Counted from the first letter of the stretch, positions 26,413-64,000 are shown. The stretch is DNA of 64,000 bases from a virus (IMGVR_UViG_3300045988_159010), one strand, 5' to 3'. Program-made: numbers and translations. Notes: a model not told the origin generated them from the letters alone.

Positions 26413-26425
26413 TAAAGGTCCCTCC

Positions 26426-48296: not shown

Positions 48297-48485
48297 AATA
48301 TAACAAAATGCCAAATACAAAGATTATTTATTCACTAAAAGTCCATATTTATCTTCAAGGGTTAGGATTTAAATATATTATTGAAATGTAGAATCCTCAA
48401 TATGAATGGTTAAATTGCTGGGTTTATGAAGAAACGCCTGATTTAATGTAGGCTCTTGATACGTATTTCAAGGAGGTACAAAATA

Positions 48486-49330: not shown

Positions 49331-49500
49331 CTTTAGGGTACTTCCTTTGTGGCGGGTGTCTTCCCCGTGGTAGTGTAGGGTTGATGGGTGTAAAGAAATA
49401 TTTTAAGAAATGAATTGAAAAACGAAATCAAAAATTGAAAGGAAAATATGAATTGAAAAATTATGGATTTCATAAGAACATAAAGAACTATTAGAACTTA

Positions 49501-50070
49501 ATGAATATATATAAAACTCTTGAACCATTATCTAAATTTGTAGAGTATAGAGAATAGGCATATGGTATTCCTCGTATAGCTATGATAGTACCAAATAATT
49601 ATAAAGAGATATGTTTAGAAGATTAGAAACAATTGAGTAAACCATATTGGACTTATAATTAGAATTATTATAGATGGTTTGGCACATAGAAAGAATTTGA
49701 TGCTATGATAGCTAAAATTAAAAAAGAAGAATAGAGATAGATAAGGAAAGATAAAGGAATAAAAGATGGTGGAGTATATGGTGTATATAAAAATGGATAG
49801 TTAATTTATATAGGTAGTACTACTGATTTTAATAAGAGATGGAATGAGCATAAAAGCCATATAAGAAATAAAGATTATAAGCTATATTTTTATAAGTTAA
49901 TTAAACCAGAGGATAATATAGAATTTAAAATATTAATTGATGGTAGTAAATTAAAGGCAGATAAAGCATTAACGGCTACTGATTTAAAGACTATGGAATT
50001 TGCATTAATTACCTTATCTTAGCCTATTGGAAATATAGCAGGTAGATTGTAGCCGTTTAGATATAAATAA
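49501..50070 (+). CDS. GIY-YIG nuclease (about 189 aa) with about 10 in-frame TAG codons
   Basis: MNIYKTLEPLSKFVEYRE-TAG-AYGIPRIAMIVPNNYKEICLED-TAG-K-TAG-LSKPYWTYN-TAG-...GVYGVYKNG-TAG-LIYIGSTTDFNKRWNEHKSH (GIY-YIG). Confidence 0.45.
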
Positions 50071-50422
50071 AGTAGGCTAATATAATAATTAGTCTACTTA
50101 TCTTATAATATAAAATAAGAGTAGTATAAGGTATATTAAATTATATTATAATCAAACATTAATAAAATGTATATAAAATTATATAATTATATTAAAAAAT
50201 CATTAAAAATTGTATTAAAATTGAGCTAAATTGTGTCAAATTACTAAAAATTGAGAAAAGGGTGGCCCTACTGCACCAGTGGCACCCCTATTATTGTTAT
50301 ATCGACCGACAACAAATAATCACTACCCTAATGCAATTATATCTTTTTTTAATATTATATCATATTTTTTTATAAAAGTCAAATTTGACTTTCCAAAAAT
50401 TTCCATTTTAGGCTAAAAAGAA

Positions 50423-50440
50423 AAGGGCATAAGCCCTTTT
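50423..50440 (-). terminator. hairpin AAGGGC-ATAA-GCCCTT with T-run downstream of gene 50443-50838
   Basis: inverted repeat plus TTTTCTTTTT on minus strand. Confidence 0.5.
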
Positions 50441-50442
50441 CC

Positions 50443-50838
50443 TCACCACCCCATCATATCAAGGAACTTATCAATGACTTCATCAGCAGAGCCATTGACC
50501 TTGTATACCTTAGCCTTTACTTTCTCAGCAGGCTTCTCAACCGTCTTACCAAGGTCTTCAATAGCACGACCAATCTTATCAGCCATATCAAAAACCTTCA
50601 TCAGGTCTTCCGGCTTAACCTCAATGTCATAGCCATAGTAATCCTTTGCAAACTTCGCCAAGCCAGTGCAGATAGCCTCTGCATCCGCGGCCATTGTCTG
50701 ATCTCTCTTGGACTTTTCAGCCTGAGCCTTCAACTCTTCTGTTCTCTTGGCCTGTGCCTTGTTCAGTTCATCAGTGATGCTCTTGGCAATATCCTCTGCG
50801 GATTCACCCTTCATCAGACGATCATAAAAATCATACAT
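50443..50838 (-). CDS. hypothetical protein (131 aa), GC-richer gene driven by an AT-rich promoter motif at 50881-50920
   Basis: ORF; TGA stop; compositional contrast with the upstream motif. Confidence 0.5.
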   Translation of the reverse strand: MYDFYDRLMKGESAEDIAKSITDELNKAQAKRTEELKAQAEKSKRDQTMAADAEAICTGLAKFAKDYYGYDIEVKPEDLMKVFDMADKIGRAIEDLGKTVEKPAEKVKAKVYKVNGSADEVIDKFLDMMGW

Positions 50839-50880
50839 ATGTATATTACCTCTTTATAAAGATTTTCAGAACTCTTTATT

Positions 50881-50920
50881 CTGTATATATATTATAAAAT
50901 ATTTTTTTAAAAATTGCAAA
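50881..50920 (-). promoter_or_regulatory. last (rightmost) copy of the AT-rich promoter-like motif
   Basis: CTGTATATATATTATAAAATATTTTTTTAAAAATTGCAAATA. Confidence 0.45.
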
Positions 50921-51137
50921 TATAGTGAGCGAAGCGAACCAGTTTCGGGAAAAACATGCGGCATATGAGAGGCCGCTAGATTGAGCAAAAAATTGCCATA
51001 TGGTAGATTAAACGGAAATTCGGCACATTAGCTCGCTAACGTGCCGCTGGAATCTTATGTAAATTTACATAAATTTCCTTGGAAAAATTTTCCAATTATG
51101 ATTCCAAAAATTGGAATGGGATTTTCTCCCATTCCAA

Positions 51138-51500
51138 TTATTTCCTTGGACGCATCAGGGTCAACCGGTATTTAATTCCATTGTAAGTAAATTCCATTTC
51201 TCGTTCTGGATTTGTAATGGTAATATTACCCAAATCCAAATCGGGATAGGCATCTTCCAAAGAACTTTCCAAATACTGGATTAGCTCCCTTTTATCTTCA
51301 TCAGGCTTGCGTTCCCGTTTTACATTTTCCACTTTCTTCCGGTCAGCACGTCTTGCCTTTTTCGCTCCTGCTTCAAGCTCCGGCGGCAATTCAAACAGCT
51401 TTTCGCCCCTATCAATTCGCTTATCCATTTCCAAAACTTGGTTAGCTTCTTCAATAGAGATTTTAAGTGAATTTGCCAACTTTTCTGCGGTCATTGACAT
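51138..51500 (-). CDS. hypothetical protein (120 aa); paralogue of 53977-54375
   Basis: shared C-terminal motif ...GIKYRLTLMRPRK versus ...GERFELTLIQKRKPKS. Confidence 0.5.
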   Translation of the reverse strand: MSMTAEKLANSLKISIEEANQVLEMDKRIDRGEKLFELPPELEAGAKKARRADRKKVENVKRERKPDEDKRELIQYLESSLEDAYPDLDLGNITITNPEREMEFTYNGIKYRLTLMRPRK

Positions 51501-51593
51501 TTTACCATCCCATTAGAATTTTGTTTGCTGGGAGCTAGCTAGAACTAGCTGGGAGAAGTAAGGGGAGAAAGCTCCCCTTACTTCTTTTTCCGC

Positions 51594-51971
51594 TCATGCC
51601 TTGGTGTAATAGACACGCCGCTTTTCAGTGGTCTTAATCACCCTGCCATCTTCCACAAGGGTTTTGAGCAGATTCGCTATTTTCTGAGTGGACATATCAT
51701 TCTCATGCTTGGCATTGAAATCAGCCACAACCGGAAGCTCCTTGAGCAGTTCGGCGATAGAGTAGGTGCGGTTGGCTTCCATCTCCTGATAAATCCGCTC
51801 CACCATCTCGGCGTTCTCCACCTGCTGTGCGGTTTCCTTCTTTTCGCCGGACTTCTTGGAAACAGAGGCAAGCAGGGCTTCCAGCTTCTCCCGCACATCA
51901 GATGCAAGGACGATGTTCTCATTGTTCAGAACGGTGTTCAGAGCCTGAGCATAGGTAATCTTCTTTTCCAT
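51594..51971 (-). CDS. hypothetical protein (about 125 aa), family with 22211-22606 and 54422-54808
   Basis: conserved leader AAAGGAATTGATAATT-ATG places the start at MEKKITYAQ; C-terminal GRVIKTTEKRRVYYTKA. Confidence 0.5.
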   Translation of the reverse strand: MEKKITYAQALNTVLNNENIVLASDVREKLEALLASVSKKSGEKKETAQQVENAEMVERIYQEMEANRTYSIAELLKELPVVADFNAKHENDMSTQKIANLLKTLVEDGRVIKTTEKRRVYYTKA

Positions 51972-52199
51972 AATTATCAATTCCTTTCTAGCGGTAGGTC
52001 GCAACCCTTATTTGTTTTGTGTTCCTCTCTTGGAACAATTATATTGTATCACAAACCTATTGATTTGTCAATACCTTATTTTGAATTTTCCACGATTTTT
52101 TTTCGACTTGAATAAAGTATCGCGGAACGCTGGAAGTATTTGTCAGAATGGCAATTTCAATACCGTAGCTATGAAAATTTTGGGAGGGATGGGAGCCTT

Positions 52200-53057
52200 T
52201 TACAGCTCCCAATCACTGTCAAATCTTCCCAACTTTTTATAGGGGAAATATTCAATACCCATCTCAAACTTGTGCTTGGTCTTTTCTCCAATGAGGGCAA
52301 ACAGCATGGATTCAATAATTGCGTCTTCCAATGCAGTATGTGCTTCTTCAAAATCTTCCTGCTGGAAACAATAGGCAAATGCCTTTTCCGCGTTGGTCGG
52401 ATAGTATTTGCCGCTTGCCGTTCTCCACTCATTATCATAACACATCTGCTTATAGTCGGGATTATTCAACAGATGTTCACAAGACAAGCCCCACAGGTCA
52501 AACAGCGGATACGTCTTGCCATGGAAGCGGAAAACATCAGGTTCAAATTCTTTCTGCGAATGGGGCTTGCTTCCGTGGGCGATTGCTTCACATCTATCAT
52601 TCTGATATGCTTCCCACTCAAAGAAATCAGGAGCATAGAGCTTGGAAACATACAGATCAGTGAACGGAATAGCTTTCTTGAAGTCGAACATACTGTTATA
52701 TGCTCCAACAGCTACAACAGCATCCAAATCTTCAATCAGTTCAGCAATAGCCGTATTCCAGTCCGTCAGCTTGATTTCTCCGGCTTTCAGACGGTCAAGA
52801 TAAATCGGCCGCTTGCTTGCATAATATGCAGTATTGAAAACGGCGGGAACACTGAAAATTTCAGAAATGAGATAGGACGCACGCTTGTAGACCTTGCCCC
52901 GAATATCCACAATCTGCCATCCCAAATCATAAATCAGCGGCTTGGCGATTGCGACATCTTTTTTCTGGTTTGCGGGAAACTTTGCGGCATAAGGAAGTGT
53001 CGCAGTTTCACAATCCAGAATCAGGTAATACTTTCGACGCTTATCAAGTTTAGTCAT
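52200..53057 (-). CDS. DnaQ-like DEDDh 3'-5' exonuclease (285 aa)
   Basis: Exo I YYLILDCETATLP, Exo III AHTALEDAIIE. Confidence 0.6.
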   Translation of the reverse strand: MTKLDKRRKYYLILDCETATLPYAAKFPANQKKDVAIAKPLIYDLGWQIVDIRGKVYKRASYLISEIFSVPAVFNTAYYASKRPIYLDRLKAGEIKLTDWNTAIAELIEDLDAVVAVGAYNSMFDFKKAIPFTDLYVSKLYAPDFFEWEAYQNDRCEAIAHGSKPHSQKEFEPDVFRFHGKTYPLFDLWGLSCEHLLNNPDYKQMCYDNEWRTASGKYYPTNAEKAFAYCFQQEDFEEAHTALEDAIIESMLFALIGEKTKHKFEMGIEYFPYKKLGRFDSDWEL

Positions 53058-53290
53058 AGGGTTTCCATCCTTTTAATAATGTCAATCAGGGTTTGCCATC
53101 GCTCCCTCATTGCTCTTATATATTATCACACCTTGCCCAAAATGTCAAGAAGAATATTTATTCATTTTCAATGAATATTTATGCACGCTTTAACACTTTA
53201 ATGTGGTGAAGTGCGGCACTTTAAGGATTTAACACTTTAATCAAATGAAGCGGCAATTTGAGAAAAAAATTGGTAAAACTGGTAAATATT

Positions 53291-53325
53291 GGAAATTCTG
53301 CCCGGCTAGGTCGTGGCCGGGCAGC
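53291..53325 (-). terminator. GC-rich hairpin CTGCCCGGC-N9-GCCGGGCAG followed by CTCAAAA (conserved intergenic module)
   Basis: analogous hairpins at 55078, 57383, 58921, 61103, 62866. Confidence 0.5.
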
Positions 53326-53353
53326 TCAAAATAAAATAGGGGCATTTCTGCCC

Positions 53354-53920
53354 CTATGCGTTCGCCATTACCAAATTGTAATTATTTTCAAAAACTTGTA
53401 AATCTTCGGCAGTCGGTTCAAACGCCTCGAACCTATCGTTTGGAATAAATTTCCGAGTTTTTCTGAAATAGGCTCTCATTAGATTTTCCAGAACCTGGGC
53501 AAGATCATCATTCGGCAACTGGTAAGACTTTACAATTTCAATGTTAGAAATCTTTACCCTGCCGCCTCTTTTGTATTCATGTTTAAGAAGCCCTTGCATC
53601 CTCTTTGCAATTACATTGGCCTTACCAATTTTTGTAAAAACCCATTTACCTGCTTCATCAAACATTTTGATTAGGTAAGTGTTGCTTGTTCCTTCTTCTT
53701 TTGGCCGTCTCTTGGTAACAAACTCACCAATGGCAAGAATTACCTGGTTTACCTTATCCAGAATGTACTTTTTTGCCCAATCCTTGCAAGCGTTGAAAAT
53801 TTCTTCGCAAGCTTCAAACCAATGAGATTTCCAACGCTTGTTTGCATTGTCAAATCTTTCCTTTGCACCCTCAAAATCGTTAGACGAAACATAATCAGAA
53901 TATGTGGGATTTTTTACCAT
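53354..53920 (-). CDS. hypothetical protein (about 188 aa)
   Basis: conserved leader AAAGGTGATAAAA-ATG places the start at MVKNPTYSDY. Confidence 0.45.
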   Translation of the reverse strand: MVKNPTYSDYVSSNDFEGAKERFDNANKRWKSHWFEACEEIFNACKDWAKKYILDKVNQVILAIGEFVTKRRPKEEGTSNTYLIKMFDEAGKWVFTKIGKANVIAKRMQGLLKHEYKRGGRVKISNIEIVKSYQLPNDDLAQVLENLMRAYFRKTRKFIPNDRFEAFEPTAEDLQVFENNYNLVMANA

Positions 53921-53976
53921 TTTTATCACCTTTTTCAATTTTTTTGGAAGAAAATGGGGAAAAATCCCCATTTTCT

Positions 53977-54375
53977 TTAACTTTTCGGCTTTCTTTTCTG
54001 GATAAGGGTCAATTCAAACCGTTCACCGCCACTAGTAAACATAATTGTGCGTTCTTTGTTGGTGATTTCTTCATCCAACACTTCAAAATCTGCCATTTCT
54101 GCCAAATATTTTGACAAACCGGCGATAATCGCACCTTTAATTTCATTAGGTTTACGCGGGCGGTACACGTTGCTTTTCTTGACCGTATGCTCTTTGACAT
54201 TAGCAAGTTTCATCGCCTGCTTATGTTCTTCTGGACTCAAATCAAAATCAACCTTTTGATTGCGGTCAATAGCTTTGTCGGCGTCCAGAATGTCAACTGC
54301 TTCATCAATCGAACATTCCAGCTTGTCAACAAGATTATCGACTTTTGCCCATTCCTTTTCAGTCAATTCTCTCAT
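53977..54375 (-). CDS. hypothetical protein (132 aa); paralogue of 51138-51500
   Basis: shared motif; ORF. Confidence 0.5.
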   Translation of the reverse strand: MRELTEKEWAKVDNLVDKLECSIDEAVDILDADKAIDRNQKVDFDLSPEEHKQAMKLANVKEHTVKKSNVYRPRKPNEIKGAIIAGLSKYLAEMADFEVLDEEITNKERTIMFTSGGERFELTLIQKRKPKS

Positions 54376-54421
54376 AGGCTCTCCTTAATTAGTGGGGCGG
54401 ATTTCTCCGCCCCTTGGTTTA

Positions 54422-54808
54422 TCACGCCTTAGTGTAGAACACGCGACGCTTCTCCGTGGTCTTAATGACCTTGCCACCATCGACCAGCGGCTTCAACAGA
54501 CTTGCGAGCTTCTGAACCGACAGTTCGGTCTCATGGTTGGTGTTCCAGTCATTGACCATCGGAAGCTCCTTCATCAGCTCTGCAACACTGTACTTACGCT
54601 CGAATGCCATCTGCTCATAGATTGCATCAGAGTAGGCGGCGTTTTCTTCCTGCTCCTTAGCCTGCTTCTTGTTCTCTTTCTTGTTTTCCAGAAGCTCAAT
54701 CTGGTGATTGATGAAGTCAATCAGGTCAGTGTCTGCACCATATTGTGCGAGGAAATCAGAAACAGTAGTGAACATTTCCTTACGGGTCGGGGCTTTAATC
54801 TTTTCCAT
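54422..54808 (-). CDS. hypothetical protein (about 128 aa), family with 51594-51971 and 22211-22606
   Basis: AAAAAGGAATTGATACC-ATG; C-terminal GGKVIKTTEKRRVFYTKA. Confidence 0.5.
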   Translation of the reverse strand: MEKIKAPTRKEMFTTVSDFLAQYGADTDLIDFINHQIELLENKKENKKQAKEQEENAAYSDAIYEQMAFERKYSVAELMKELPMVNDWNTNHETELSVQKLASLLKPLVDGGKVIKTTEKRRVFYTKA

Positions 54809-54862
54809 GGTATCAATTCCTTTTTGGTTTTTAAGTGTTTCCTTCACTTGTTGACTTAATTA

Positions 54863-54940
54863 TAGCACATTAGATGGAGATTGTCAAGAGGGAATTTTAT
54901 TTTTTTTACACACGAACCTAGGAAGTTGTGTAGCCCGACT
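54863..54940 (-). promoter_or_regulatory. sigma-A promoter (TTGACA-17-TATAAT: CCCTCTTGACAATCTCCATCTAATGTGCTATAATTAAG on minus strand) bracketed by 13-bp inverted repeats TGTCAAGAGGGAA / TTCCCTCTTGACA
   Basis: canonical hexamers and spacing; the inverted repeat overlaps the -35 (operator-like). Confidence 0.5.
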
Positions 54941-55077
54941 AACTATGTCAAGCACTTTTAGTTGCTGTTCCCTCTTGACATTATGAATTATACCATGTTT
55001 CAGGATTCTTGTCTATTGGCAAAATACACAAAATTTGCATGAAAAAATTGTGTAAAATGCTTAAAAATTAAAATGCC

Positions 55078-55106
55078 GCCCAATTGCGTTGGTAATTGGG
55101 CGGCTC
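55078..55106 (-). terminator. hairpin GCCGCCCAATTGCG-TTGG-TAATTGGGCGGC followed by TCAAATG
   Basis: conserved intergenic module. Confidence 0.5.
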
Positions 55107-55125
55107 AAATGAACCGCCCATTTTT

Positions 55126-55446
55126 TTAGGAATTTTCATCCAAACCGCAAGCAATTTCCAGAAGATTACAGATGTTCAAAACATCATAAATGTCTGGCTG
55201 TTCAAAATCATCATCATCTTCCCACCATTCCCAGCAAATACAACCACAGTATTCACCATTGGCATTCAATGGATAACAATACCAGCCATTTTCAATTTTT
55301 GATGCTTCTCCTAAATTTTTTGGAAACCAGTAATCTTTTACCGTGGTATTATAACTTATAACGGGAAGACCATCTGCACCATAAATTACAACTGGCATTT
55401 CATTTCTTCTAAACCAAGCCATAATAACCTTAATAAAAAAAGCCAT
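55126..55446 (-). CDS. hypothetical protein (about 106 aa)
   Basis: ORF; GGAGGATTGAAA-ATG. Confidence 0.45.
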   Translation of the reverse strand: MAFFIKVIMAWFRRNEMPVVIYGADGLPVISYNTTVKDYWFPKNLGEASKIENGWYCYPLNANGEYCGCICWEWWEDDDDFEQPDIYDVLNICNLLEIACGLDENS

Positions 55447-55448
55447 TT

Positions 55449-55598
55449 TCAATCCTCCACCAGATTTTCCCTGATAAATTCATCATCTTCATAGAAGTAT
55501 TCGCCCCAAGAGTATTGGCAAATCCACAAGGCGTCTGTATCATCCCACTGGATGACTTGGGCGGTATAACCGCCCTTGTTAAATCTCTTTCCTCTCAT
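55449..55598 (-). CDS. small protein (49 aa)
   Basis: GAAGGATTTTAACGA-ATG; MRGKRFNKGGYTAQVIQWDDTDALWICQYSWGEYFYEDDEFIRENLVED. Confidence 0.3.
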   Translation of the reverse strand: MRGKRFNKGGYTAQVIQWDDTDALWICQYSWGEYFYEDDEFIRENLVED

Positions 55599-55870
55599 TC
55601 GTTAAAATCCTTCTTTCCGTCAAGAATTGCTTCAATTTCAGAAGTGGTCAGGCGGTCAACCTTTTCTTCAATCTCATTGAGAATTTCTCCGTCATCCCCG
55701 CAGATTTCATCGGTGATGTTCAACCATTCATCATAGATGTGAAGCAGGACAAAATCGCCCGATTCGATTGTTGCACCACAACAGCCGCAGATAATTTCAT
55801 CTCTGTCCTGATTCCAGATACCCGTTTGAACAGTTCCTTCATTGTCCATGAAAATAACCTGATAATTCAT
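55595..55870 (-). CDS. hypothetical protein (91 aa) with CxxC pair
   Basis: ORF. Confidence 0.45.
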   Translation of the reverse strand: MNYQVIFMDNEGTVQTGIWNQDRDEIICGCCGATIESGDFVLLHIYDEWLNITDEICGDDGEILNEIEEKVDRLTTSEIEAILDGKKDFNE

Positions 55871-55925
55871 TGTATCATTTCCTTTCCTTTTGATAAATCA
55901 ATTATATCACAGGTCAAGGGGCTTG

Positions 55926-56336
55926 TCAAGCCCCTTGATTAAATTTCTTGCCAATTTCCTGAATATCTTCAAGAACTTCTTCATAAGACCGCCACTCGCC
56001 ATAATGGTATTCAGGGTCATAATACCACAGACCATAGTAGTCAATCAGTCCCATGACAATTTTAATGGGAACTTCATAGCCCATTTCATCAAAATAATCA
56101 TTGATGAATTGTGCTTGGGCATAAGAATGAATTTCCACCGCCCCAATTTCATCACATTTAGGATAATTAAATCCCTCAATTTCCTTGCCTTCAAGGTCGA
56201 ACAGCGTCAACGGCTCGCAATTTTCAGATTTACATAAATCTTCGTATCTGCATTTCCATTCGTGATGAATACATTCTTCTTCATCGTTGAACACCTGCCC
56301 GCAGAAGTCGCACTCATAGGTTGTAATTTCAGTCAT
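55926..56336 (-). CDS. hypothetical protein (about 136 aa) with N-terminal Zn-finger-like CDFCG...C-x2-H-x3-C
   Basis: conserved leader GAAAGGAATTGATAAAC-ATG at MTEITTYECDFCG. Confidence 0.45.
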   Translation of the reverse strand: MTEITTYECDFCGQVFNDEEECIHHEWKCRYEDLCKSENCEPLTLFDLEGKEIEGFNYPKCDEIGAVEIHSYAQAQFINDYFDEMGYEVPIKIVMGLIDYYGLWYYDPEYHYGEWRSYEEVLEDIQEIGKKFNQGA

Positions 56337-56351
56337 GTTTATCAATTCCTT

Positions 56352-56513
56352 TCACTTAATTTCACCATTTTTGAAATATCCAGTTGCTGGTACTAACTTT
56401 ACTTCTTTTGGATTTATCCAATGCTCTTTCATGTATTTTTCCGCTGTTTCTTCATCTTCAAAAACAAGTCCTGTGAATCTTAACCCACATTCATATTTCA
56501 TCAATGCTATCAT
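56352..56513 (-). CDS. small protein (53 aa)
   Basis: MIALMKYECGLRFTGLVFEDEETAEKYMKEHWINPKEVKLVPATGYFKNGEIK; GAAAGGAATTGATACT leader. Confidence 0.3.
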   Translation of the reverse strand: MIALMKYECGLRFTGLVFEDEETAEKYMKEHWINPKEVKLVPATGYFKNGEIK

Positions 56514-56619
56514 AGTATCAATTCCTTTCCTTTTGGTACTATTATTATATCAAATTTTTTTTAATTTGTCAAGCCGGTTGGGAATTTTTTTTTATAATTT
56601 TTTTCCCAACCGGCATTTT

Positions 56620-56943
56620 TTATTTCATGATTGAAGAAAATTCTTCTGTGTGTCCACAACTATCGCAAGTATAGTAATAATCTTTTGAACCGCGATAATT
56701 TGTAGCACTTGAAAATTGATACTGACCGCCACATTCACAATAACCATTATTCCAGCGGTCATGATTGCTTTCTTGTTCTTTGTACAATAGAGTTGCAACG
56801 CCAAAACCAATAGCAATCGCAATCAGAACAGCAACAACTCTACCATGCCAAGTTTCAGGGGCAACAATGGCGATCATTAAAGGAAGAATGGTTAAAACTA
56901 ACCAAGCAAAATAAAAACCCGGATTTGTAAGCATTTGTATCAC
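56620..56943 (-). CDS. membrane protein with C-terminal Zn-ribbon (107 aa)
   Basis: two TM helices; CECGG...CDSCGH. Confidence 0.45.
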   Translation of the reverse strand: MIQMLTNPGFYFAWLVLTILPLMIAIVAPETWHGRVVAVLIAIAIGFGVATLLYKEQESNHDRWNNGYCECGGQYQFSSATNYRGSKDYYYTCDSCGHTEEFSSIMK

Positions 56944-56946
56944 TCC

Positions 56947-57258
56947 TTAAATATAAATGATTCCATTGCCACCAGCAGGCGGATTCAGATTGTCTACGGT
57001 GATGTCAGTAGCCGCGTCCTGGCCATCTTCGTCTTCATACTCAACATGGAATGTCAAATCTCCAACATTATCCAGATAATCCTGAACAGACTTGATGATT
57101 GCGGCCATGTATTTTGCTTCTTTCTCTTGGTCTAACTGGTTAATTCTTTCCTTGGCTAATGCAATTAAGGTCTGTAATTCTTCCGGCTTCCTGTTATTTA
57201 TGTAGTCGTTCAAGTCCTGCAAATTCATTGCTTTAACAATAGCGGCGTCCATAATCAT
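56947..57258 (-). CDS. hypothetical acidic protein (about 103 aa)
   Basis: AAGGAATTGATAAAA-ATG leader. Confidence 0.45.
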   Translation of the reverse strand: MIMDAAIVKAMNLQDLNDYINNRKPEELQTLIALAKERINQLDQEKEAKYMAAIIKSVQDYLDNVGDLTFHVEYEDEDGQDAATDITVDNLNPPAGGNGIIYI

Positions 57259-57382
57259 TTTTATCAATTCCTTTCTTAATTTGTATCTTAATTATACACG
57301 GTTTCAGGATTTTTGTCTATTGGCAGAATAACCAAATTTGTGAGTAAAAAATTGTGCAATGTGCCAAAAATCTAAAAATCCT

Positions 57383-57410
57383 CGCGGCTGGACCGTGGCC
57401 GCGAGGCTCA
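57383..57410 (-). terminator. hairpin CCTCGCGGC-N9-GCCGCGAGG followed by CTCAAAAAA
   Basis: conserved intergenic module. Confidence 0.5.
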
Positions 57411-57460
57411 AAAAATAACACAAGGGACTTATTTTATCAAGCCCCTTGTGTTATTTTTTT

Positions 57461-57910
57461 TTAATCCTCAATTACAGTACCAAGGTAGCGGGCAATCATC
57501 ATCACTTCACAGCCCATGTCTTGTGAATCGCAAACCACATATCCCACGCGGTCACCATCTGCGTCAATCGGGTAAACGCCGTAAGTGGCATTGTATTCAA
57601 ATGGTTCGTCTTCATCTTCCCAGGTCTTTGAGACATAGGACGGAAAGTTTTCCATACCTCGCAATTTTGTATCAGCGTCATAAATTGCAATAGGACGCAA
57701 ACCGGAATTTGATGCCATTTTAATAGCAATTCGTAAGGGTTCTTCTGCAAGGGAACCAAGTGTTGAATACTTCTGAAAATAAACGCCGTTATTTTCAATA
57801 AAGATTTCAAGTGGGTCACCCTCATGAATCTTTAAGCTACGGCGAATTTCTTTCGGAATAACAACACGTCCAAGGTCATCAATTCTGCGAATAATGCCAG
57901 TTGCTTTCAT
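57461..57910 (-). CDS. AbrB/SpoVT-family transition-state-regulator-like DNA-binding protein (about 149 aa)
   Basis: MKATGIIRRIDDLGRVVIPKEIRRSLKIHEGDPLEIFIENNGVYFQKY closely parallels B. subtilis AbrB MKSTGIVRKVDELGRVVIPIELRRTLGIAEKDALEIYVDDEKIILKKY; conserved leader. Confidence 0.6.
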   Translation of the reverse strand: MKATGIIRRIDDLGRVVIPKEIRRSLKIHEGDPLEIFIENNGVYFQKYSTLGSLAEEPLRIAIKMASNSGLRPIAIYDADTKLRGMENFPSYVSKTWEDEDEPFEYNATYGVYPIDADGDRVGYVVCDSQDMGCEVMMIARYLGTVIED

Positions 57911-57946
57911 TTTTATCAATTCCTTTCTTTTGATAGCCCTATTGTA

Positions 57947-58318
57947 TCACAATAGGGCTTTATTCTCTTTCTTAATGGTATAATAAGTTTTATTTCTTTT
58001 GTGAGTACAGTTAAGTTTGTTATCAAAATAGGCAAGCTGAATAGCATACCATGCGATAGCCTGACAAGGAATTTCTTCGTTGACTGCTCGGTAAATATCA
58101 AACTGCATATCTGTCGGAGTCAATGCTTTATCTGCATGATTCAAAACCAAAAGGATTAGACCCTTAATCTTTTCAGCTTTTTCTGCCTGAATAGCGTGCC
58201 GACGTTCAAGTTCTTCTTCATGCTTTTGACAAGCTCTTTCAAGAACGTACTTGTCATAGCTTGATAATTCAGAACCCTCGGTGAGTTTTTTCAATACAGA
58301 GTAAATTCCATAATTCAT
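57947..58318 (-). CDS. hypothetical protein (123 aa)
   Basis: ORF with conserved leader. Confidence 0.45.
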   Translation of the reverse strand: MNYGIYSVLKKLTEGSELSSYDKYVLERACQKHEEELERRHAIQAEKAEKIKGLILLVLNHADKALTPTDMQFDIYRAVNEEIPCQAIAWYAIQLAYFDNKLNCTHKRNKTYYTIKKENKALL

Positions 58319-58386
58319 GGTATCAATTCCTTTCTTAATTTGTATAGTTATTGTATCACATTAGGGGTTGTTTGTCAACCCCTAAT

Positions 58387-58800
58387 TTATTTAATCATCG
58401 GGCAAGTGTTCATTCCATTGTCTTTCATCCAGCGGATAAAATCTTCTGCGGACAATTCTCCCGACAACTTCTTGAAACTCATGTCATAATCAATTGGTTT
58501 ATAAATTGTTTCACGTGAAACAGGGAAACTGATTTTTTCGGGCTTGTATTCTTCGCCTTTCCAGTATCTCATATCCTCGATATGGAATTTTTTGATTCTT
58601 CTGTCAAAAGTTCCACGCTTAATAGAACCATTGACATAGTTACTGCAAATAGCTACTGCAAGGTTTGTTGTGTTTTTAATTGTCAATACTTCATTTTCAG
58701 GCGGTTCGGGGCGATAAACAAGTTGCGGGTCCCAATTCAGAATAGGCTCTTGACCATCATTCATTTTCATGTAAATGCGTTTCCAATACAGATTTTTCAT
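58387..58800 (-). CDS. hypothetical protein (137 aa)
   Basis: ORF. Confidence 0.45.
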   Translation of the reverse strand: MKNLYWKRIYMKMNDGQEPILNWDPQLVYRPEPPENEVLTIKNTTNLAVAICSNYVNGSIKRGTFDRRIKKFHIEDMRYWKGEEYKPEKISFPVSRETIYKPIDYDMSFKKLSGELSAEDFIRWMKDNGMNTCPMIK

Positions 58801-58920
58801 AGTTCATTCTCCTTACTTATTATCTCTTGGAACAATTATAGTATAACAGGTATCGGGAAAAAAGTCAACTGTCATTTTGCACAAAATTTGGGGTAAAAAA
58901 TTGGTGAAAATGCTGAAAAT

Positions 58921-58955
58921 CTAAAATGCCTGCCGCGGCGTGGGATCGCGGCAGG
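58921..58955 (-). terminator. hairpin GCCTGCCGCG-N11-CGCGGCAGGC followed by TCAAATAG; near-identical to 61103-61132
   Basis: conserved intergenic module. Confidence 0.5.
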
Positions 58956-59030
58956 CTCAAATAGAATTTCCATTTAATTCCAATAGACAAGTAAGAAAAT
59001 GGGAATCCAAAATCTGGATTCCCAAATTTT

Positions 59031-59318
59031 TCAAATAGGAAGTGAATTGAGAGGACAAGGAAAAACTGTAATACCAACATTTGGTTTCAGCAAGAATTTG
59101 GCATCTTCTCCGATATAATCAAAACTGAAAACTGCCCATTCAGTTTCGATATCTTCATCATCCAGCATCAGATTTTGCCAAGCAGGATTTACTGTGGAAA
59201 CCTTGTCAAAAATTGTCTGGACTGCTTCTTTCGCTTTCTCAAAACTGTCGAATGCACAATCCAAATCGTTGAAATCTGCTTCTTCAAAATGAACTACCCA
59301 AATAACCTTTGTTTCCAT
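59031..59318 (-). CDS. hypothetical acidic protein (about 95 aa)
   Basis: ORF; start placed at METKVIWVVHF. Confidence 0.4.
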   Translation of the reverse strand: METKVIWVVHFEEADFNDLDCAFDSFEKAKEAVQTIFDKVSTVNPAWQNLMLDDEDIETEWAVFSFDYIGEDAKFLLKPNVGITVFPCPLNSLPI

Positions 59319-59392
59319 TTTTATCCATCCAGCCCAAGGCAATCAAAATTTTAATGTCCGTTGCTTCTTCAAGCAAAATGTCAAGCTGTTCG

Positions 59393-59590
59393 TCATTCAT
59401 TTGATTCTTCTCCCCAAGTAATAATTTTTGTGTAGGTCTTTACTCCGAACATAAGTCTTTTCATGTCTAAAATAAATGAATCGGCATCACGTTCTGTGCG
59501 AAAATCTAATTCATTGTTATAATATACTCTTTTTTCATCATAGCCTGAATATTTGACAGTAATTTTTTTAGGAATCATCATCTTCATCGT
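59393..59590 (-). CDS. hypothetical protein (about 65 aa)
   Basis: start MKMMIPKK overlapping upstream stop. Confidence 0.35.
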   Translation of the reverse strand, partial: TMKMMIPKKITVKYSGYDEKRVYYNNELDFRTERDADSFILDMKRLMFGVKTYTKIITWGEESNE

Positions 59591-59786
59591 CTCCCCAAAT
59601 GGCAACAGCCAAAGTATAACAGTCATTTTGTAAATCAGAATGAATTTCAAACAGTTTATCACTTAATTCTTGTGCGTTTGTAAAATCATAAGGATTTGAG
59701 ATATTCTTTTTTTCACAGTAAACTTTTCCAGCTAATTTTCCGATTCGATTTGCTAAATCGGCAAGTTCTTTAAGAATATCATTCAT
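59568..59786 (-). CDS. hypothetical acidic protein (72 aa)
   Basis: AAGGGGAAAATAAA-ATG. Confidence 0.4.
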   Translation of the reverse strand: MNDILKELADLANRIGKLAGKVYCEKKNISNPYDFTNAQELSDKLFEIHSDLQNDCYTLAVAIWGDDEDDDS

Positions 59787-59810
59787 TTTATTTTCCCCTT
59801 ATGGGCTGGA

Positions 59811-60284
59811 TTATTCCAGCCCATTCAAAATTTCTTTCAATACTTCCAGAATGTCAACCTTAGTTGGGTCGATTGCTCCGCCCAAGTTCCAATCTCTGCG
59901 GACTCTTGCATCATCATCAAAAATCAGGGCTTCTTCATCATCAGCAAGTCGTGCGGCTTCAACCTTATGCTTCGGCGTTCCATAAGCTACACAGCGAAGA
60001 CTGTCAAATGGAAAACCATATTCTTTCAGCCAAGCACGCTTCGCTTTTCTGACTTCATCATCATACTGCTTGTTCGGCTCTTTTGACAGCCAAGTGATAA
60101 CTGCAACATTGATACCGCAATTCTGCAAGCTACGGAGCAGACAGGCAAGTTCTGCCATATCAACCAGCGGTTCGGCGGTCTGATAGGGTGTAGGGTCATA
60201 GGCTCGAATTTTATCAAGCCAATCTTCCACACCATAGAGGTCAACCAGAGTTCCATCAAGATCGAAACACAATTCCTTAATCAT
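59811..60284 (-). CDS. HAD-superfamily phosphatase (157 aa), nucleotidase-like
   Basis: motif I FDLDGTLVD; small cap-less HAD size typical of phage 5'(3')-nucleotidases. Confidence 0.55.
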   Translation of the reverse strand: MIKELCFDLDGTLVDLYGVEDWLDKIRAYDPTPYQTAEPLVDMAELACLLRSLQNCGINVAVITWLSKEPNKQYDDEVRKAKRAWLKEYGFPFDSLRCVAYGTPKHKVEAARLADDEEALIFDDDARVRRDWNLGGAIDPTKVDILEVLKEILNGLE

Positions 60285-60355
60285 TTTATCATTTCCTTTC
60301 TCTTTTGGAGTATCTTTATTATAACAGGTTCAACCAAATTTGTCAAGTGTTTTTT

Positions 60356-60739
60356 TCAAACTAATTTAATATTTTTATAGTTTTCAATAGCCCAAGCACT
60401 TGCAAATGGCATAATAGACATATCTTTTACACCATTATTTACACTCATTTGGATATTTTTCCCAAGAGCATAAGCATATCCGATTTCCCAAGCTGTTCCA
60501 GAATCAGAATACAGACCATCATATACGACAAACACCATGTCACATTCTTGAATGGCGGCAATATCCATTTTGAAAACTTCCCTTGCCCAATCCTCTTGTG
60601 ACATTTCCCAAGCATTTGGAACTGTATGTTCTTGCGGCACAAATACATCATACCCAAGCCGCCGGAAACCAGCCGCATATGAATCAATTCTTGATTTTGT
60701 CTCAGGGCGGAAGAACGCACCTGCCATATAGATTTTCAT
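60356..60739 (-). CDS. nucleoside 2-deoxyribosyltransferase / dNMP N-hydrolase-family protein (about 127 aa)
   Basis: MKIYMAGAFF...PQEH...YDGLYSDSGTAWEIGYAYALGK family signature; GAAAGGAGAATCTGAT-ATG. Confidence 0.5.
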   Translation of the reverse strand: MKIYMAGAFFRPETKSRIDSYAAGFRRLGYDVFVPQEHTVPNAWEMSQEDWAREVFKMDIAAIQECDMVFVVYDGLYSDSGTAWEIGYAYALGKNIQMSVNNGVKDMSIMPFASAWAIENYKNIKLV

Positions 60740-60753
60740 ATCAGATTCTCCTT

Positions 60754-60921
60754 TCAAGAACCGATTGACAAAATATTTCCATTTTTGTCAAATTCAAACA
60801 TAATGTCTTCGCCTAAACAGGCGTTCTCAATTTCGACATATACATCAGTGCTGGTAATAATAGGTTGTAGGCTTTTGTTCAGATGTTCCAAAATCTGGTT
60901 GAGGGCTTCGCGGTCAGTCAT
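60754..60921 (-). CDS. small protein (55 aa)
   Basis: GGAAAGGAAATAAATCAA-ATG; MTDREALNQILEHLNK... Confidence 0.4.
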   Translation of the reverse strand: MTDREALNQILEHLNKSLQPIITSTDVYVEIENACLGEDIMFEFDKNGNILSIGS

Positions 60922-61102
60922 TTGATTTATTTCCTTTCCTCTTGGATTGTTTATAGTATAGCACAGGGCAAGCCAAATGTCAAGACATAAAATGGAAAAT
61001 GTTTTCGTCAAATTGCACAAAGATTTTGGGAAAAATTTCCAAGAGCTGGGCTGGAAGGATTTGGAAAACTTTTTTACGTTAGCACTTTAATTCGCGAAAT
61101 TC

Positions 61103-61132
61103 CGGCCGCGGCGTGGGATCGCGGCCGGCTCA
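61103..61132 (-). terminator. hairpin GCCGGCCGCG-N10-CGCGGCCGGC followed by TCAAATG
   Basis: conserved intergenic module. Confidence 0.5.
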
Positions 61133-61312
61133 AATGAATTTCCAAATTATGGGATTGCCAAAATTTTCCGCATTTGATTTTTCGACTGGAAAATTATAGA
61201 ATTGAAACAGAAATAAAAATTATTTTTTTTATATAAAAAATTATATTATTTTTTTCTATAATTTTCAAATAAGAATTTCCTCCCAAAATATGGGAGGAAA
61301 CTCAAATTGATT

Positions 61313-61531
61313 TTAGAATTTATAATGCGGAATTTCGGAAGCGTCAAGAACTCTTGCGATAGGTTCATCATTTTCGACTAACATATAGTCTTTTCCACAG
61401 TGCTTCTGAATATGGGATTCAGCTTCTGAACGGCACGAGGCATCTACAAAAAACAGACGCGGCCAGTCTTTTGTGGGGAAGAAGTTAATTACCAGATATT
61501 TCCACGTCTTATCTCCTTCCATTTTTACCAC
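61313..61531 (-). CDS. hypothetical protein (72 aa)
   Basis: ORF. Confidence 0.4.
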   Translation of the reverse strand: MVKMEGDKTWKYLVINFFPTKDWPRLFFVDASCRSEAESHIQKHCGKDYMLVENDEPIARVLDASEIPHYKF

Positions 61532-61755
61532 TCCTTAATATTCAGTGTAGCTTCTACGGCGTAGACTTTTGCATCATCAGGGAAACAGTCAAATTCTCCG
61601 GTAGCTAAATCAATTGCGTTAATTTCATCGCCCTCATTGTCGATACATTCTGTTTTCATATGAATTGTGTCTGTCCTTGGGTCGCGGAAAACAGTTCCAA
61701 CTTCCAAGGAAGCGAAATGTCTAAATTCTTTTTTCTGTGCAAATTCGATTTTCAT
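61525..61755 (-). CDS. hypothetical protein (76 aa)
   Basis: ORF. Confidence 0.4.
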   Translation of the reverse strand: MKIEFAQKKEFRHFASLEVGTVFRDPRTDTIHMKTECIDNEGDEINAIDLATGEFDCFPDDAKVYAVEATLNIKEW

Positions 61756-61757
61756 TT

Positions 61758-62081
61758 TTATTTTTCCTTTCTATGTTTAATTAGCTTTTTTGCCATGTTC
61801 TTCTGAATTGCGTCATATACCACTTTCGGCATTTTCATCTGCCCGTTTCGTCTGAAAATTGCAGTTGCTTTGTCCATGTTGACATAATATAATGTGATTA
61901 GAAATTCCATCCGGCTATCTGTAATCAAAATCACTCCTGTACTTGTAATAATTTGCCATTTGTCCTCATATTTGAATTTTGCAACAGGTTCGCCAAGTCC
62001 GGTATTCATTTGAATTTCAACATATCTATCCAAGCGGTCTTCCTTGATATGCTGACTAACTTGCAATTTTGTGATATCCAT
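61758..62081 (-). CDS. hypothetical protein (107 aa)
   Basis: ORF. Confidence 0.45.
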   Translation of the reverse strand: MDITKLQVSQHIKEDRLDRYVEIQMNTGLGEPVAKFKYEDKWQIITSTGVILITDSRMEFLITLYYVNMDKATAIFRRNGQMKMPKVVYDAIQKNMAKKLIKHRKEK

Positions 62082-62111
62082 TTTAATTTCCTCCTTTTGG
62101 AAGAGGGCTTT

Positions 62112-62303
62112 TTAGCCCTCATTCCTATCATCTTCAATCCAACGGTTAAGGAACTGTTCGCAAGATTCATCCGGATTATCAATAACCGCTTTCTCACAAG
62201 CCTTCTGAAAAGGACAGGCTTCACAAGAAGGAAGGTGTTTAATAAGTTCAATCAGCATTTTCTTATCAAGAATGTTATTTGCAAATTCAGACATTTTCAT
62301 TTT
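62112..62303 (-). CDS. small Cys-containing protein (about 63 aa)
   Basis: GGGGGGGGGAAAATAAAA-ATG at MKMSEFANN; CEACPFQKACE...C. Confidence 0.4.
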   Translation of the reverse strand, partial: KMKMSEFANNILDKKMLIELIKHLPSCEACPFQKACEKAVIDNPDESCEQFLNRWIEDDRNEG

Positions 62304-62319
62304 TATTTTCCCCCCCCCC

Positions 62320-62460
62320 TTAATCAATATAAGTAGACATTAGACAAACCCATTCGCGGTTCTCATACTTTGGGCTTCTTTCCCTAGCGTCTGCTAGGGA
62401 ATAGCCATATGCAGTTTCAATTTCACCCGTGTTGACGTTGTACATTTCAAATTCAAACAT
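62320..62460 (-). CDS. small protein (46 aa)
   Basis: GAGGAGGACTAACATC-ATG; MFEFEMYNVNTGEIETAYGYSLADARERSPKYENREWVCLMSTYID. Confidence 0.35.
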   Translation of the reverse strand: MFEFEMYNVNTGEIETAYGYSLADARERSPKYENREWVCLMSTYID

Positions 62461-62464
62461 GATG

Positions 62465-62626
62465 TTAGTCCTCCTCGATGCAACCGCAGACTGTGTACCA
62501 CAGACCCATATACTCGTCATAATTACGGGCATATGTATTGCAGAAGTCATTGATGGATTCCGCACTGAAATCATGGTCATTATCAATCCATTCGTTCAGC
62601 AGTTCAGCGATTCTTTCAGTAGTCAT
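62465..62626 (-). CDS. small acidic Cys-containing protein (53 aa)
   Basis: TGGAGATACAAAAA-ATG; MTTERIAELLNEWIDNDHDFSAESINDFCNTYARNYDEYMGLWYTVCGCIEED. Confidence 0.35.
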   Translation of the reverse strand: MTTERIAELLNEWIDNDHDFSAESINDFCNTYARNYDEYMGLWYTVCGCIEED

Positions 62627-63038
62627 TTTTTGTATCTCCATTTCATTTTTTATCTGTTCCCTTGGAACAATTATATATTAGCACACCCTATGGCAAATGT
62701 CAATAGGAAAGTCAAATTTTTTTATTCGTCAATATGCACAAAGATTTTGGAAATAAATGGTATGGAATTATATACCATAAGCTGGTAGGATATGGGAAAT
62801 GGAACATAATGTCAGATATGGTAAAATTTGACTGGAAATATTCGGAATTGGTATTAAATGGAAAATGCGGGGCGTGGCGAGCCTGCTGTGGATATAGCAA
62901 TTTCGCCACGCCCCGGCGAGGAACTTCATTTGATTAAAGTGATGATGAATTAAAGAAAATGAATATTCATTTTGAAATGTATAAATATTCATTTCCAAAA
63001 GATAGAAAAATGGGGCTGATTTCCAGCCCCATATGGAA

Positions 63039-63350
63039 TTAAATGTAAAGGCAAGCCGGATTGCCACGCCATCTGTAAATCGAAAGCTGATTACATTTCT
63101 TGCCAATTTCAACCGCCTCGCGTTTTGTGGAAACTCGTTTGGAAATGTCAATGTAATATCTGCCATTTTCAACCCAAACGCCGCATGTGCCCTTGAACTC
63201 TCGAACCGCCTGTATTGCCATTTCAGGGCTTATGACCTCGACGCCATTAGTAGCTACCTGATAGCCGCTCTTGTACCTCTTGATTTTTCCATTTTTAAGA
63301 GTCAGGCCATCGCCGTCAGCCAGTTTCTTGATTGTGCGAATGTTAATCAT
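63039..63350 (-). CDS. hypothetical protein (103 aa)
   Basis: AACAGAAAGGAATTGATAAT-ATG leader. Confidence 0.45.
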   Translation of the reverse strand: MINIRTIKKLADGDGLTLKNGKIKRYKSGYQVATNGVEVISPEMAIQAVREFKGTCGVWVENGRYYIDISKRVSTKREAVEIGKKCNQLSIYRWRGNPACLYI

Positions 63351-63383
63351 ATTATCAATTCCTTTCTGTTGGTGAAGAGGGTC

Positions 63384-63626
63384 TTACCCCTCTTCACTCC
63401 AATTTGCCCTAGACCTATCAAGGTCTACCTTAAAGACTTCCCAATGCTGGGGAATGATTTCAAACTCCCGTGTTGAGAGGTTGAAAGCATTAGAGCCATC
63501 CGCCCAGCCTTCTGCACCAACTGGGATATAGAGAATATCATCCCATTCCCCGTTGAGAGTAAAGAGGTCATGTGCTCCAAGGGCTCCTTCCTGTGTCCAT
63601 TCACCAGACCATTTATGATTTTTCAT
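63384..63626 (-). CDS. hypothetical protein (80 aa)
   Basis: ORF. Confidence 0.4.
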   Translation of the reverse strand: MKNHKWSGEWTQEGALGAHDLFTLNGEWDDILYIPVGAEGWADGSNAFNLSTREFEIIPQHWEVFKVDLDRSRANWSEEG

Positions 63627-63627
63627 T

Positions 63628-63780
63628 TTAATCCTCCATCATCACGAAAAAGTTCCAAGAGGGATATTCAGGTCTGCCGCCAGCAGGATTATTGTGGCGG
63701 ACCACCTGACAAAATGAAACAGAAATCCAGAGCATAATGATAATGCCGGATAGGGTCAACGCGAGTTTGAGATTTTTCAT
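63628..63780 (-). CDS. small secreted or membrane protein (about 50 aa)
   Basis: CGGAAAGGAATTTTTGAA-ATG; MKNLKLALTLSGIIIMLWISVSF signal/TM. Confidence 0.4.
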   Translation of the reverse strand: MKNLKLALTLSGIIIMLWISVSFCQVVRHNNPAGGRPEYPSWNFFVMMED

Positions 63781-64000
63781 TTCAAAAATTCCTTTCCGAA
63801 AATTCAATTCATGTGCTCGATTGTGCGGTTGGTAAGCGGTAGAGGGACTCAAATGTCCCTCACCACTAACGTCAAATGGTCTGCCATATGTTCAATACAC
63901 TGCACCATCTGATAGCTTGTGAAATGATAAGTTGTCAGCAGGCCAGAGGTAAATACCGCAGACCGACTGCCGAACCCTACAATTTCCAGTTCCTGCATGA

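Follow-up and report, generated by a model that had tools for sequence, protein, structure and literature searches.

A Promoter-Dense Gene Block without In-Frame TAG as the Probable Early Module of a Gut Phage with TAG Recoded to Glutamine

The viral sequence IMGVR_UViG_3300045988_159010, a stretch of 64,000 nucleotides that we call the window, carries between 50.4 and 64 kb a block of small, GC-richer genes in which TAG is not used as a sense codon. This unrecoded block sits between recoded late-type genes on both sides. We consider it to be an early, host-takeover-type module, readable in the host's code, of a gut phage in which TAG has been recoded to glutamine (Gln), and we put the probability of this interpretation at roughly 0.78. 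According to the model proposed here, host RNA polymerase containing sigma-A would transcribe the block from at least ten near-consensus promoters with an extended -10 element, the transcripts would correspond to short operons closed by intrinsic terminators, and the unmodified host apparatus would translate them in the standard code, initiating at an extended Shine-Dalgarno leader, GAAAGGAATTGATA. Being translated in the host's standard code, the block would therefore be devoid of in-frame TAG and free to use TAG as a stop. The genes at 25.6-48.1 kb, nearly TAG-free and of intermediate composition, would form a middle class, and the later TAG-bearing genes, which encode tail fibres, terminase, portal, homing endonucleases and a maturase, would give full-length products only after a phage-supplied decoder has appeared.

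Results

The Window Belongs to a Single Phage Genome

Exact-protein look-ups showed that the window is part of a ~189.5-kb human-gut phage; relative to scaffold_9 of assembly ERZ5855809 (189,494 bp), it is the reverse complement of about 86.8-150.8 kb. The independent assemblies, all from Peruvian human-gut metagenomes, also include ERZ28620964 scaffold_10 (189,525 bp), whose ends are permuted relative to those of scaffold_9, ERZ28620746 (189,320 bp) and shorter contigs. Nearly all genes of the window are on the minus strand.

The initial annotation assigned both sides of a junction near 50.9 kb to one genome. The alternative, an assembly chimera or an insertion of host or mobile-element DNA joined to a recoded phage, has in its favour the abrupt shift in composition and regulatory signals near this position and nothing else. 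The region 48.0-53.5 kb is contiguous and 100% identical in two ~189.5-kb assemblies from different samples, 99.9% identical to two more contigs over the portions that these cover, and collinear in diverged relatives at 82-93% identity. Because the junction is identical across independent assemblies, it is not an assembly chimera. Recoded phage genes on both flanks argue in the same direction, as do the AT-class promoter at 61223, within the block, and the sigma-A-like promoters beyond it (see below). None of the host chromosomes matched the block: a scan of 185,579 species genomes returned only contigs of metagenome-assembled genomes (MAGs) with inconsistent taxonomy, mostly in Clostridia bins, and no isolate bacterial genome. 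Since the block matches phage contigs and inconsistently binned MAG contigs alone, it is not host DNA. A megablast search of 50.4-64 kb and 29-46 kb against 50,697 phage records gave no nucleotide match, and relatives were seen by protein only. The single-genome view is therefore upheld, and the chimera or insertion can be regarded as effectively refuted. The window is part of one uncultured gut phage in which TAG means glutamine and whose host probably belongs to the Clostridia.

Composition and TAG Use Define Three Regimes

Genes were called with TAG allowed as a sense codon, and four regions were compared for gene GC content, GC content at third codon positions (GC3) and in-frame TAG:

1-25.6 kb (R1): GC3 0.19, gene GC 0.325; in-frame TAG at 39 of 6621 codons; real internal TAG in 12 of 25 genes
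25.6-48.1 kb, minus strand (R2): GC3 0.29, gene GC 0.358; in-frame TAG at 3 of 6798 codons; real internal TAG in 2 of 43 genes
48.1-50.1 kb, plus strand (R3): GC3 0.20; in-frame TAG at 17 of 492 codons; real internal TAG in 3 of 4 genes
50.4-64 kb (R4, the block): GC3 0.403, gene GC 0.406; in-frame TAG at 2 of 3412 codons; real internal TAG in 0 of 32 genes

The block is GC-richer than R1 and R2, as previously noted from the sequence, and the statement that it contains no in-frame TAG also holds, given that both TAGs counted in R4 lie downstream of a true TAG stop. At the late-gene rate of R1, about 20 would be expected (P about 3e-9). Two other elements of the initial annotation require correction. 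TAG is not a sense codon over the whole of 1-50.9 kb, the 25.6-48.1 kb region being nearly free of it, and this part of the window is not uniformly AT-rich either, with a GC content of 0.40-0.43 at 718-4995, 44570-45979 and 47463-47930. The 50.9-kb boundary thus marks the onset of the GC-richest class, but not the limit of TAG use. There are three regimes, not two: a late type, a middle type and the 50.4-64 kb block. The GC3 values of R2 and R4 differ significantly (P=3e-6).

The late-type genes (0-25.5 kb, 48.1-50.1 kb and a packaging operon outside the window) have a GC3 of about 0.19 and 6-35 TAGs per 1000 codons. Those bearing TAG in R1 encode tail fibres, homing endonucleases, a radical SAM maturase and a methyltransferase. 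Of the CAA and CAG codons for glutamine taken together, CAA accounts for 76% and CAG for 24% in R1, whereas CAG accounts for 68% in R4. Two of the three in-frame TAGs of R2 are real, namely codon 21 of metK and codon 3 of gene 39050-39490. The following features belong to the first two regimes:

5018-6610, minus strand: two Mtd_N-type tail-fibre genes (late structural) with in-frame TAG
25600-48100, minus strand: middle-type region with AT-class promoters and RNA-repair and metabolic genes

The RNA-repair-type genes of the middle region (25633-27416, 34065-34601 and 44570-45979, minus strand) encode a metallophosphoesterase, an RlaP-like nucleotidyltransferase, an AAA_33 kinase-like protein and an RNA ligase.

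These figures bear on the idea that the distribution of TAG is a neutral by-product, with TAG arising from CAG under AT pressure, GC-richer genes having gained none, and no functional partition being involved. TAG-bearing genes do have a lower GC3 (median 0.17 vs 0.31, P=7e-7), and the late genes contain about as many TAGs as CAGs. However, off-frame TAGs are plentiful in all four regions (98 + 117 in R2) and common in the block as well (27 + 18), where in-frame ones are nil; R2, with a GC3 of 0.29, has 169 Gln codons and only 2 TAGs; within 1-25.6 kb, genes with and without TAG are not set apart by GC3 (P=0.14); and one gene of the block genuinely ends at a TAG (see below). We therefore regard a neutral origin as very improbable.

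TAG Is Read as Glutamine

TAG stands for glutamine (genetic code 15) in this phage, because it aligns with conserved Gln residues in two proteins. The first, encoded at 16734-18074 (minus strand), is a radical SAM peptide maturase of the family that targets CXXX repeats; its 446 codons include 8 in-frame TAGs and neither TAA nor TGA, in a segment with a GC content of just 26%. In an alignment with 29 homologues, three of the TAGs fall on conserved columns occupied by Gln in 28/29, 18/29 and 17/29 sequences, against a background Gln frequency of 3.7%, with the caveat that some homologues are from recoded phages translated with Gln by convention. The second is the S-adenosylmethionine synthetase MetK (36880-39003, minus strand), in which the TAG at 38941-38943 (codon 21) coincides with the invariant Gln of the HPDKxCDQxSDA motif. 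TAG is also found within motif I of a C5 methyltransferase, within a GIY-YIG motif and in a Zn-ribbon repeat that extends beyond it. Several genes are broken by TAG alone, without in-frame TAA or TGA: besides the maturase (8 TAGs), these are the terminase (14), portal (10) and a GIY-YIG gene (10). The preferred stop codon is TAA.

Some further features of these two loci were noted. Directly downstream of the maturase gene, 16112-16740 (minus strand) encodes a Cys/Gly/Ser-rich phage protein with CXXX repeats; homologues occur on many contigs of 180-214 kb, and additional radical SAM genes are located near the tail-fibre genes of relatives. An AT-rich open reading frame (ORF) from 15424 to about 16060 is separate from the CXXX-repeat gene (about 16112-16740); a single gene "15424-16398" was rejected, as this call had merged an out-of-frame stretch. 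MetK contains an insertion of ~320-340 aa between its central and C-terminal domains that matches a PhoH-like ATPase family of PHROG, and no intein domain was found in this insertion.

The Block Is Dense in Promoters, Leaders and Terminators

The ~32 small genes of the module have a median length of ~90 aa and all lie on the minus strand. The module runs past the end of the window, to a position equivalent to ~66.9 kb (6755 in locus L005). The gene strand has ten intergenic sites that agree with TTGACA-17-TATAAT in at least 11 of 12 positions; nine of them include the TG of an extended -10 element. Eight lie 31-51 nt before a start codon (six at 31-34 nt); the outlying promoters 52071-52043 and 55015-54987 end 72 and 179 nt before theirs. 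Sigma-A sites had initially been annotated near 54863-54940 and 57290-57330, and both exist (54887-54859 and 57319-57291), as two of the ten. An 88-nt repeat with conserved upstream sequence is common to three promoters; apart from the copy that includes 57291-57319, it is found at 54986-55073 and 58839-58926. The module and its main signals are as follows:

51021-64000, minus strand: early (host-takeover-like) module
54859-54887, minus strand: sigma-A-type promoter TTGACA-17-TGnTATAAT, 12/12
55901-55929, minus strand: sigma-A-type promoter with TG, 12/12
56544-56572, minus strand: sigma-A-type promoter with TG, 12/12
60318-60346, minus strand: sigma-A-type promoter with TG, 12/12
57291-57319, minus strand: sigma-A-type promoter TAGACA-17-TATAAT, 11/12, within the 88-nt repeat
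52043-52071, minus strand: sigma-A-type promoter with TG, 11/12
54987-55015, 58350-58378 and 60955-60983, minus strand: further 11/12 sigma-A-type sites
63365, 60299, 58333, 57926, 57274 (57262-57274), 56528, 56352, 55885, 54823 and 51987, minus strand: first bases of the leader AAAGGAATTGATA
51109-51139, minus strand: intrinsic terminator hairpin GGAATGGGA/TCCCATTCC with T-run, directly behind the last early gene's stop codon
51021-51046, minus strand: second hairpin, CGGCACGTTAGC/GCTAATGTGCCG, at the 3' end of the module
53354-53356, minus strand: TAG as genuine stop of gene 53354-53920, within terminator hairpin 53357-53336

The conserved leader described initially was recovered in ten copies, all on the gene strand, 2-3 nt before an ATG, and confined to 51.9-63.4 kb. 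The sequence GAAAGGAATTGATA matches 11 of the 14 positions of GAAAGGAGGTGATC, the complement of the 3' end of Bacillus subtilis 16S rRNA, which may not be the rRNA of the actual host. By our reading, the leader would be an extended Shine-Dalgarno sequence. Terminator-like hairpins number 26 in the block, against 10.2 expected. The two palindromes that had been reported at the junction are both present; they (51139-51109 and 51046-51021) are terminators closing the module, the second acting as a back-up.

Gene 53354-53920 ends in ...VMANA-TAG, and this TAG is the start of the hairpin ATAGGGGCAGAAATGCCCCTAT, which is followed by a T-run. A comparison of strains shows conservation of the protein as far as the TAG, and of the hairpin, whereas the frame downstream is shifted by 1-nt indels. 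The TAG at 53354 is therefore a real stop, which lends indirect support to a host that uses the standard code. Database calls made with the TAG-sense table (code 15) stretch this gene from 188 to 227 aa.

The Recoded Flanks and a Second, AT-Rich Promoter Class

The initial annotation credited the AT-rich part of the window with a promoter motif of its own. Such a motif, of ~45 nt, has about 20 copies from 10.6 to 50.9 kb, and one more copy is located inside the block, at 61.2 kb. Its sequence on the gene strand is TTGAAA-N17-TATAAT; the spacer is an invariant A-tract, an (AT)n run follows downstream, and in a variant the -35 element is TTTTAT. It precedes TAG-free and TAG-bearing genes alike, and therefore defines no code class. 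On the 5'-numbered side, the block is adjoined by these features:

50874-50923, minus strand: AT-class promoter TTTGCAA-N-TATAAT-ATATATA of gene 50443-50838
50443-50838, minus strand: monocistronic gene, GC3 0.50, with its own terminator at 50440-50415
50354-50382, minus strand: hybrid promoter TTGACT-17-TGnTATAAT with an AT-class spacer
48146-50070, plus strand: very AT-rich, TAG-rich module encoding a ribbon-helix-helix protein, a 64-aa protein, a 173-aa helix-turn-helix protein and a GIY-YIG endonuclease; 17 TAGs in 492 codons

Downstream of the hybrid promoter, a strong one, 50347-50265 (minus strand) contains a candidate structured small RNA of ~85 nt, without an ORF, that ends in a hairpin and T-run; its folding z-score is -2.1, and it is convergent with the TAG-rich module on the plus strand. 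An Rfam scan of 47.9-51.3 kb did not detect any ribozyme, riboswitch or known small RNA.

At the other end, at the ~66.9 kb equivalent, a 12/12 sigma-A promoter stands opposite a divergent TTGACT-17-TGnTATAAT promoter. The divergent packaging operon includes genes for a YonG-like protein (10 TAGs), the terminase large subunit (14) and portal (10). Its first gene (L005 5521-6642, minus strand) has one in-frame TAG and belongs to a PHROG family labelled "sigma factor" (E=5e-52); a Pfam search of the protein found no sigma-70 domain, which makes the label tentative.

Paralogues had been proposed to link the two parts of the window, with GC-rich islands of the same families inside the AT-rich part. 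The relevant features are:

53977-54808, minus strand: two-gene cassette, 54422-54808 and 53977-54375
51138-51971, minus strand: second copy of the cassette, 51594-51971 and 51138-51494
22211-22606, minus strand: GC-rich island, GC 0.51, behind an AT-class promoter

Genes 51594 and 54422 are indeed paralogues (58% identity), but 22211-22606 is only a remote member of their family, detected by profile comparison (hhalign probability 94.8%, E=4.9e-8); BLASTP of 22211 against 51594, 54422 and 50443 gave nothing significant. Both islands, 22211-22606 and 50443-50838, lie behind the AT motif, as stated initially, but the assignment of 50443 to the 51594 family was rejected, since profile comparison gave no relation.

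The Layout Is Shared by Relatives

As relatives we used 64 IMG/VR loci that encode homologues of a 285-aa block protein at 38-97% identity, on contigs of up to 189 kb. The bipartite layout expected in related genomes was found there in the form of a TAG-poor, promoter-dense block: TAG occurs at 0.69 per 1000 codons in the co-directional block vs 3.26 per 1000 in neighbouring genes, and in the 64 loci together with nine MAG contigs, the block strand has 927 extended -10 promoters and the other strand 134. The leader sequence is mostly limited to closer relatives.

The block might owe its character to mosaic ancestry, that is, to acquisition by recombination from a standard-code, GC-richer phage lineage; its composition and its lack of TAG would then be due to history and not to selection for translation in the host code. 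This would agree with the patchy gene-by-gene GC content (GC-rich islands at 22211, 44570, 47463 and 50443), with early-block gene content that differs between strains, with homologues of the 285-aa protein in standard-code Enterococcus phages, and with some relatives that have no TAG anywhere in 20 kb. Yet the block stays poor in TAG, in an unchanged context, in relatives with as little as 38% protein identity, which implies long co-residence and continued avoidance of TAG, and the AT-richer 25.6-48.1 kb region is nearly TAG-free as well, so that TAG avoidance does not simply track GC. Mosaic ancestry is compatible with an early module rather than exclusive of it; as the explanation of the pattern we consider it unlikely.

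Observations That Weigh against an Early Module

Several observations weigh against the interpretation of the block as an early, host-code module. A suppressor tRNA with anticodon CUA was not found in the window or in 86 fetched loci with ARAGORN (default, relaxed and intron settings) or the Rfam tRNA model, a search that left out ~106 kb of the genome. The tRNAs of the window cover 482 per 1000 late-gene codons vs 510 per 1000 early-block codons (48% vs 51%); the late genes are thus not tuned to the phage tRNA set, contrary to what had been proposed. The AT-rich promoter class is itself sigma-70-like, and the TTGACT-17-TGnTATAAT promoter, which is sigma-A-like, heads the heavily recoded packaging operon. 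The link between promoter type and code suggested initially is therefore not strict, and gating at translation through TAG fits better than a purely transcriptional partition. Only three significant family matches in the block point to a function: Nuc_deoxyrib_tr (nucleoside deoxyribosyltransferase), a MazE/AbrB-type DNA binder and a nucleotidase-like family. The GC excess of the block is small in relatives: it averages +0.02 and is positive in 32 of 45 loci. Finally, we infer the "early" timing from promoter and gene architecture alone; which polymerase and sigma factor transcribe the block, and what decodes TAG, are inferred as well.

The tRNA Cluster and Candidate Decoders of TAG

Between 7.3 and 15.2 kb, the window has at least 15 tRNA or tRNA-like genes. 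An Rfam scan of this region found no ribozyme, riboswitch or known small RNA. Two of the genes may read stop codons:

8268-8341, minus strand: tRNA with anticodon UUA, a G27.A43 mismatch atop the anticodon stem and an encoded CCA; identical in two relatives
15080-15154, minus strand: tRNA-like gene with a 6-nt loop, GUUAAU (Stop or Leu reading), and an encoded CCA; conserved in relatives

The tRNA(UUA) at 8268-8341 is the best-supported candidate for a stop-reading tRNA in the window, and 15080-15154 is a weaker one. A UUA anticodon should read UAA besides UAG, yet TAA is the main stop here; a CUA tRNA elsewhere in the genome is the likelier decoder. According to the survey by Borges et al. 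(10.1101/2021.08.26.457843), amber suppressor tRNAs were found in only 40% of TAG-recoded genomes.

The cluster has other unusual members. In the tRNA genes at 14840-14988 and 10992-11124 (both minus strand), inserts of 73 and 58 nt, AT-rich, tRNA-like and ending in CCA, split the anticodon loop between nucleotides 36 and 37. When the inserts are cut out exactly, canonical 7-nt loops result, and ARAGORN with default settings calls tRNA-Ile(UAU) and tRNA-Lys(UUU). The nested tRNAs are conserved in relatives (L085 5372-5542 and 4007-4156; L086 4002-4171), with compensatory changes in outer and inner stems, and one relative has an uninterrupted Lys(UUU) orthologue. No description of nested tRNAs of this kind was found in the literature searched. 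At 7334-7421 (minus strand) there is a tRNA whose anticodon is CCA; with its acceptor stem of 8 bp, anticodon stem of 6 bp and long variable arm, it resembles selenocysteine tRNA or allo-tRNA, and it scores 38.8 bits against the Rfam tRNA-Sec model, under the gathering score of 47. An HNH endonuclease frame with 6 TAGs (11670-12482, minus strand) runs through the gene for tRNA-Leu(UAG) at 11948-12032. HNH and GIY-YIG genes are scattered in the cluster here and absent from the more compact clusters of relatives.

A three-step cascade that works without a CUA tRNA can be imagined, leading from early genes (sigma-A, standard code) through the nearly TAG-free middle genes to the recoded late genes, with decoding of the latter made possible by middle products and the non-canonical tRNA cluster. 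The middle products in question may be the RNA ligase, the RlaP-like nucleotidyltransferase, the kinase-like protein and the phosphoesterase, and the contribution of the cluster may be the conserved tRNA(UUA) with its unpinned stem and the interrupted tRNA-Ile(UAU) and tRNA-Lys(UUU), which would need excision and religation. The late genes are rich in TAG, AUA and AAA codons. If this speculative and rather unlikely scheme were true, late transcription would itself be gated by the code switch, via the TAG-bearing gene of the PHROG "sigma factor" family.

Discussion

The proposal that early genes use the host code and late genes are TAG-recoded fits the data: the packaging operon has 10-14 TAGs per gene, a gene of the block ends in a TAG stop, and the 64 relatives are TAG-poor in the block. 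The phage offers a clean example of a single genome in which TAG is a stop, in an early gene and within a terminator hairpin, and also Gln, in late genes. For annotation this means that no single table, be it code 11 or code 15, suits all genes of genomes like this one.

Phage T4 has discrete codon-usage classes that track expression time (early vs late genes, phage tRNAs) and, to our knowledge, no stop-codon reassignment. Unlike in T4, the tRNA set of the window does not preferentially match late-gene codons.

In the host-takeover module of the Bacillus phage SPO1 (Herelleviridae), the early genes are small and their promoters and ribosome-binding sites strong (PMC6873191). The block resembles it in size (~12-16 kb), in its ~25-35 small genes, in its many short operons and in its strong sigma-A promoters (PMC6873191); it also has the unusually strong ribosome-binding sites of an SPO1-type module, and several strong sigma-A promoters and terminators serve its operons. 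Homology to SPO1 gp37-gp60 was not detected, and no PHROG match was named for an SPO1 takeover function. Given this, and permuted assembly ends that do not place the block in a terminal redundancy, where the SPO1 module lies, the block "works like" the SPO1 module and is not classed as a member of this type. SPO1 also differs from this phage in using the standard code throughout.

A closer parallel in coding is phAss-1 (proposed Phassvirus), a 136-kb human-gut phage with a predicted Clostridia host, TAG as Gln in many ORFs and three tRNA-Sup-CTA genes (PMC10607447). It is akin to Enterococcus phage EF1-like phages and encodes a distant homologue (25% identity) of the 285-aa early-block protein, but has no nucleotide similarity to the window.

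The most relevant comparison is with the recoded gut phages surveyed by Borges et al. (10.1101/2021.08.26.457843), whose survey covers crAss-like, Lak, Jade, Sapphire and Agate clades and includes Peruvian Matses/Tunapuco gut metagenomes. There, early genes are proposed to be expressed in the host's standard code, and a code switch then permits the late genes with in-frame stops. Set against these phages, only a UUA tRNA, and no CUA tRNA, was seen here, and the parts of their report consulted contain no counterpart to the promoter, leader and terminator anatomy of the block, to TAG as a real stop or to the three-step GC3 gradient. The phages agree in reading TAG as Gln, mostly in structural and packaging genes, in recoding a fraction of their genes in several modules, in a genome size of about 150-210 kb, in low GC content, in TAA as the preferred stop and in the source of the samples. 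It is thus most economical to regard the model presented here as the published one, to which our observations add detail on a known phenomenon. The mapped promoters, leaders and terminators leave that model unchanged and supply parts with which its code-switch timing can be tested.

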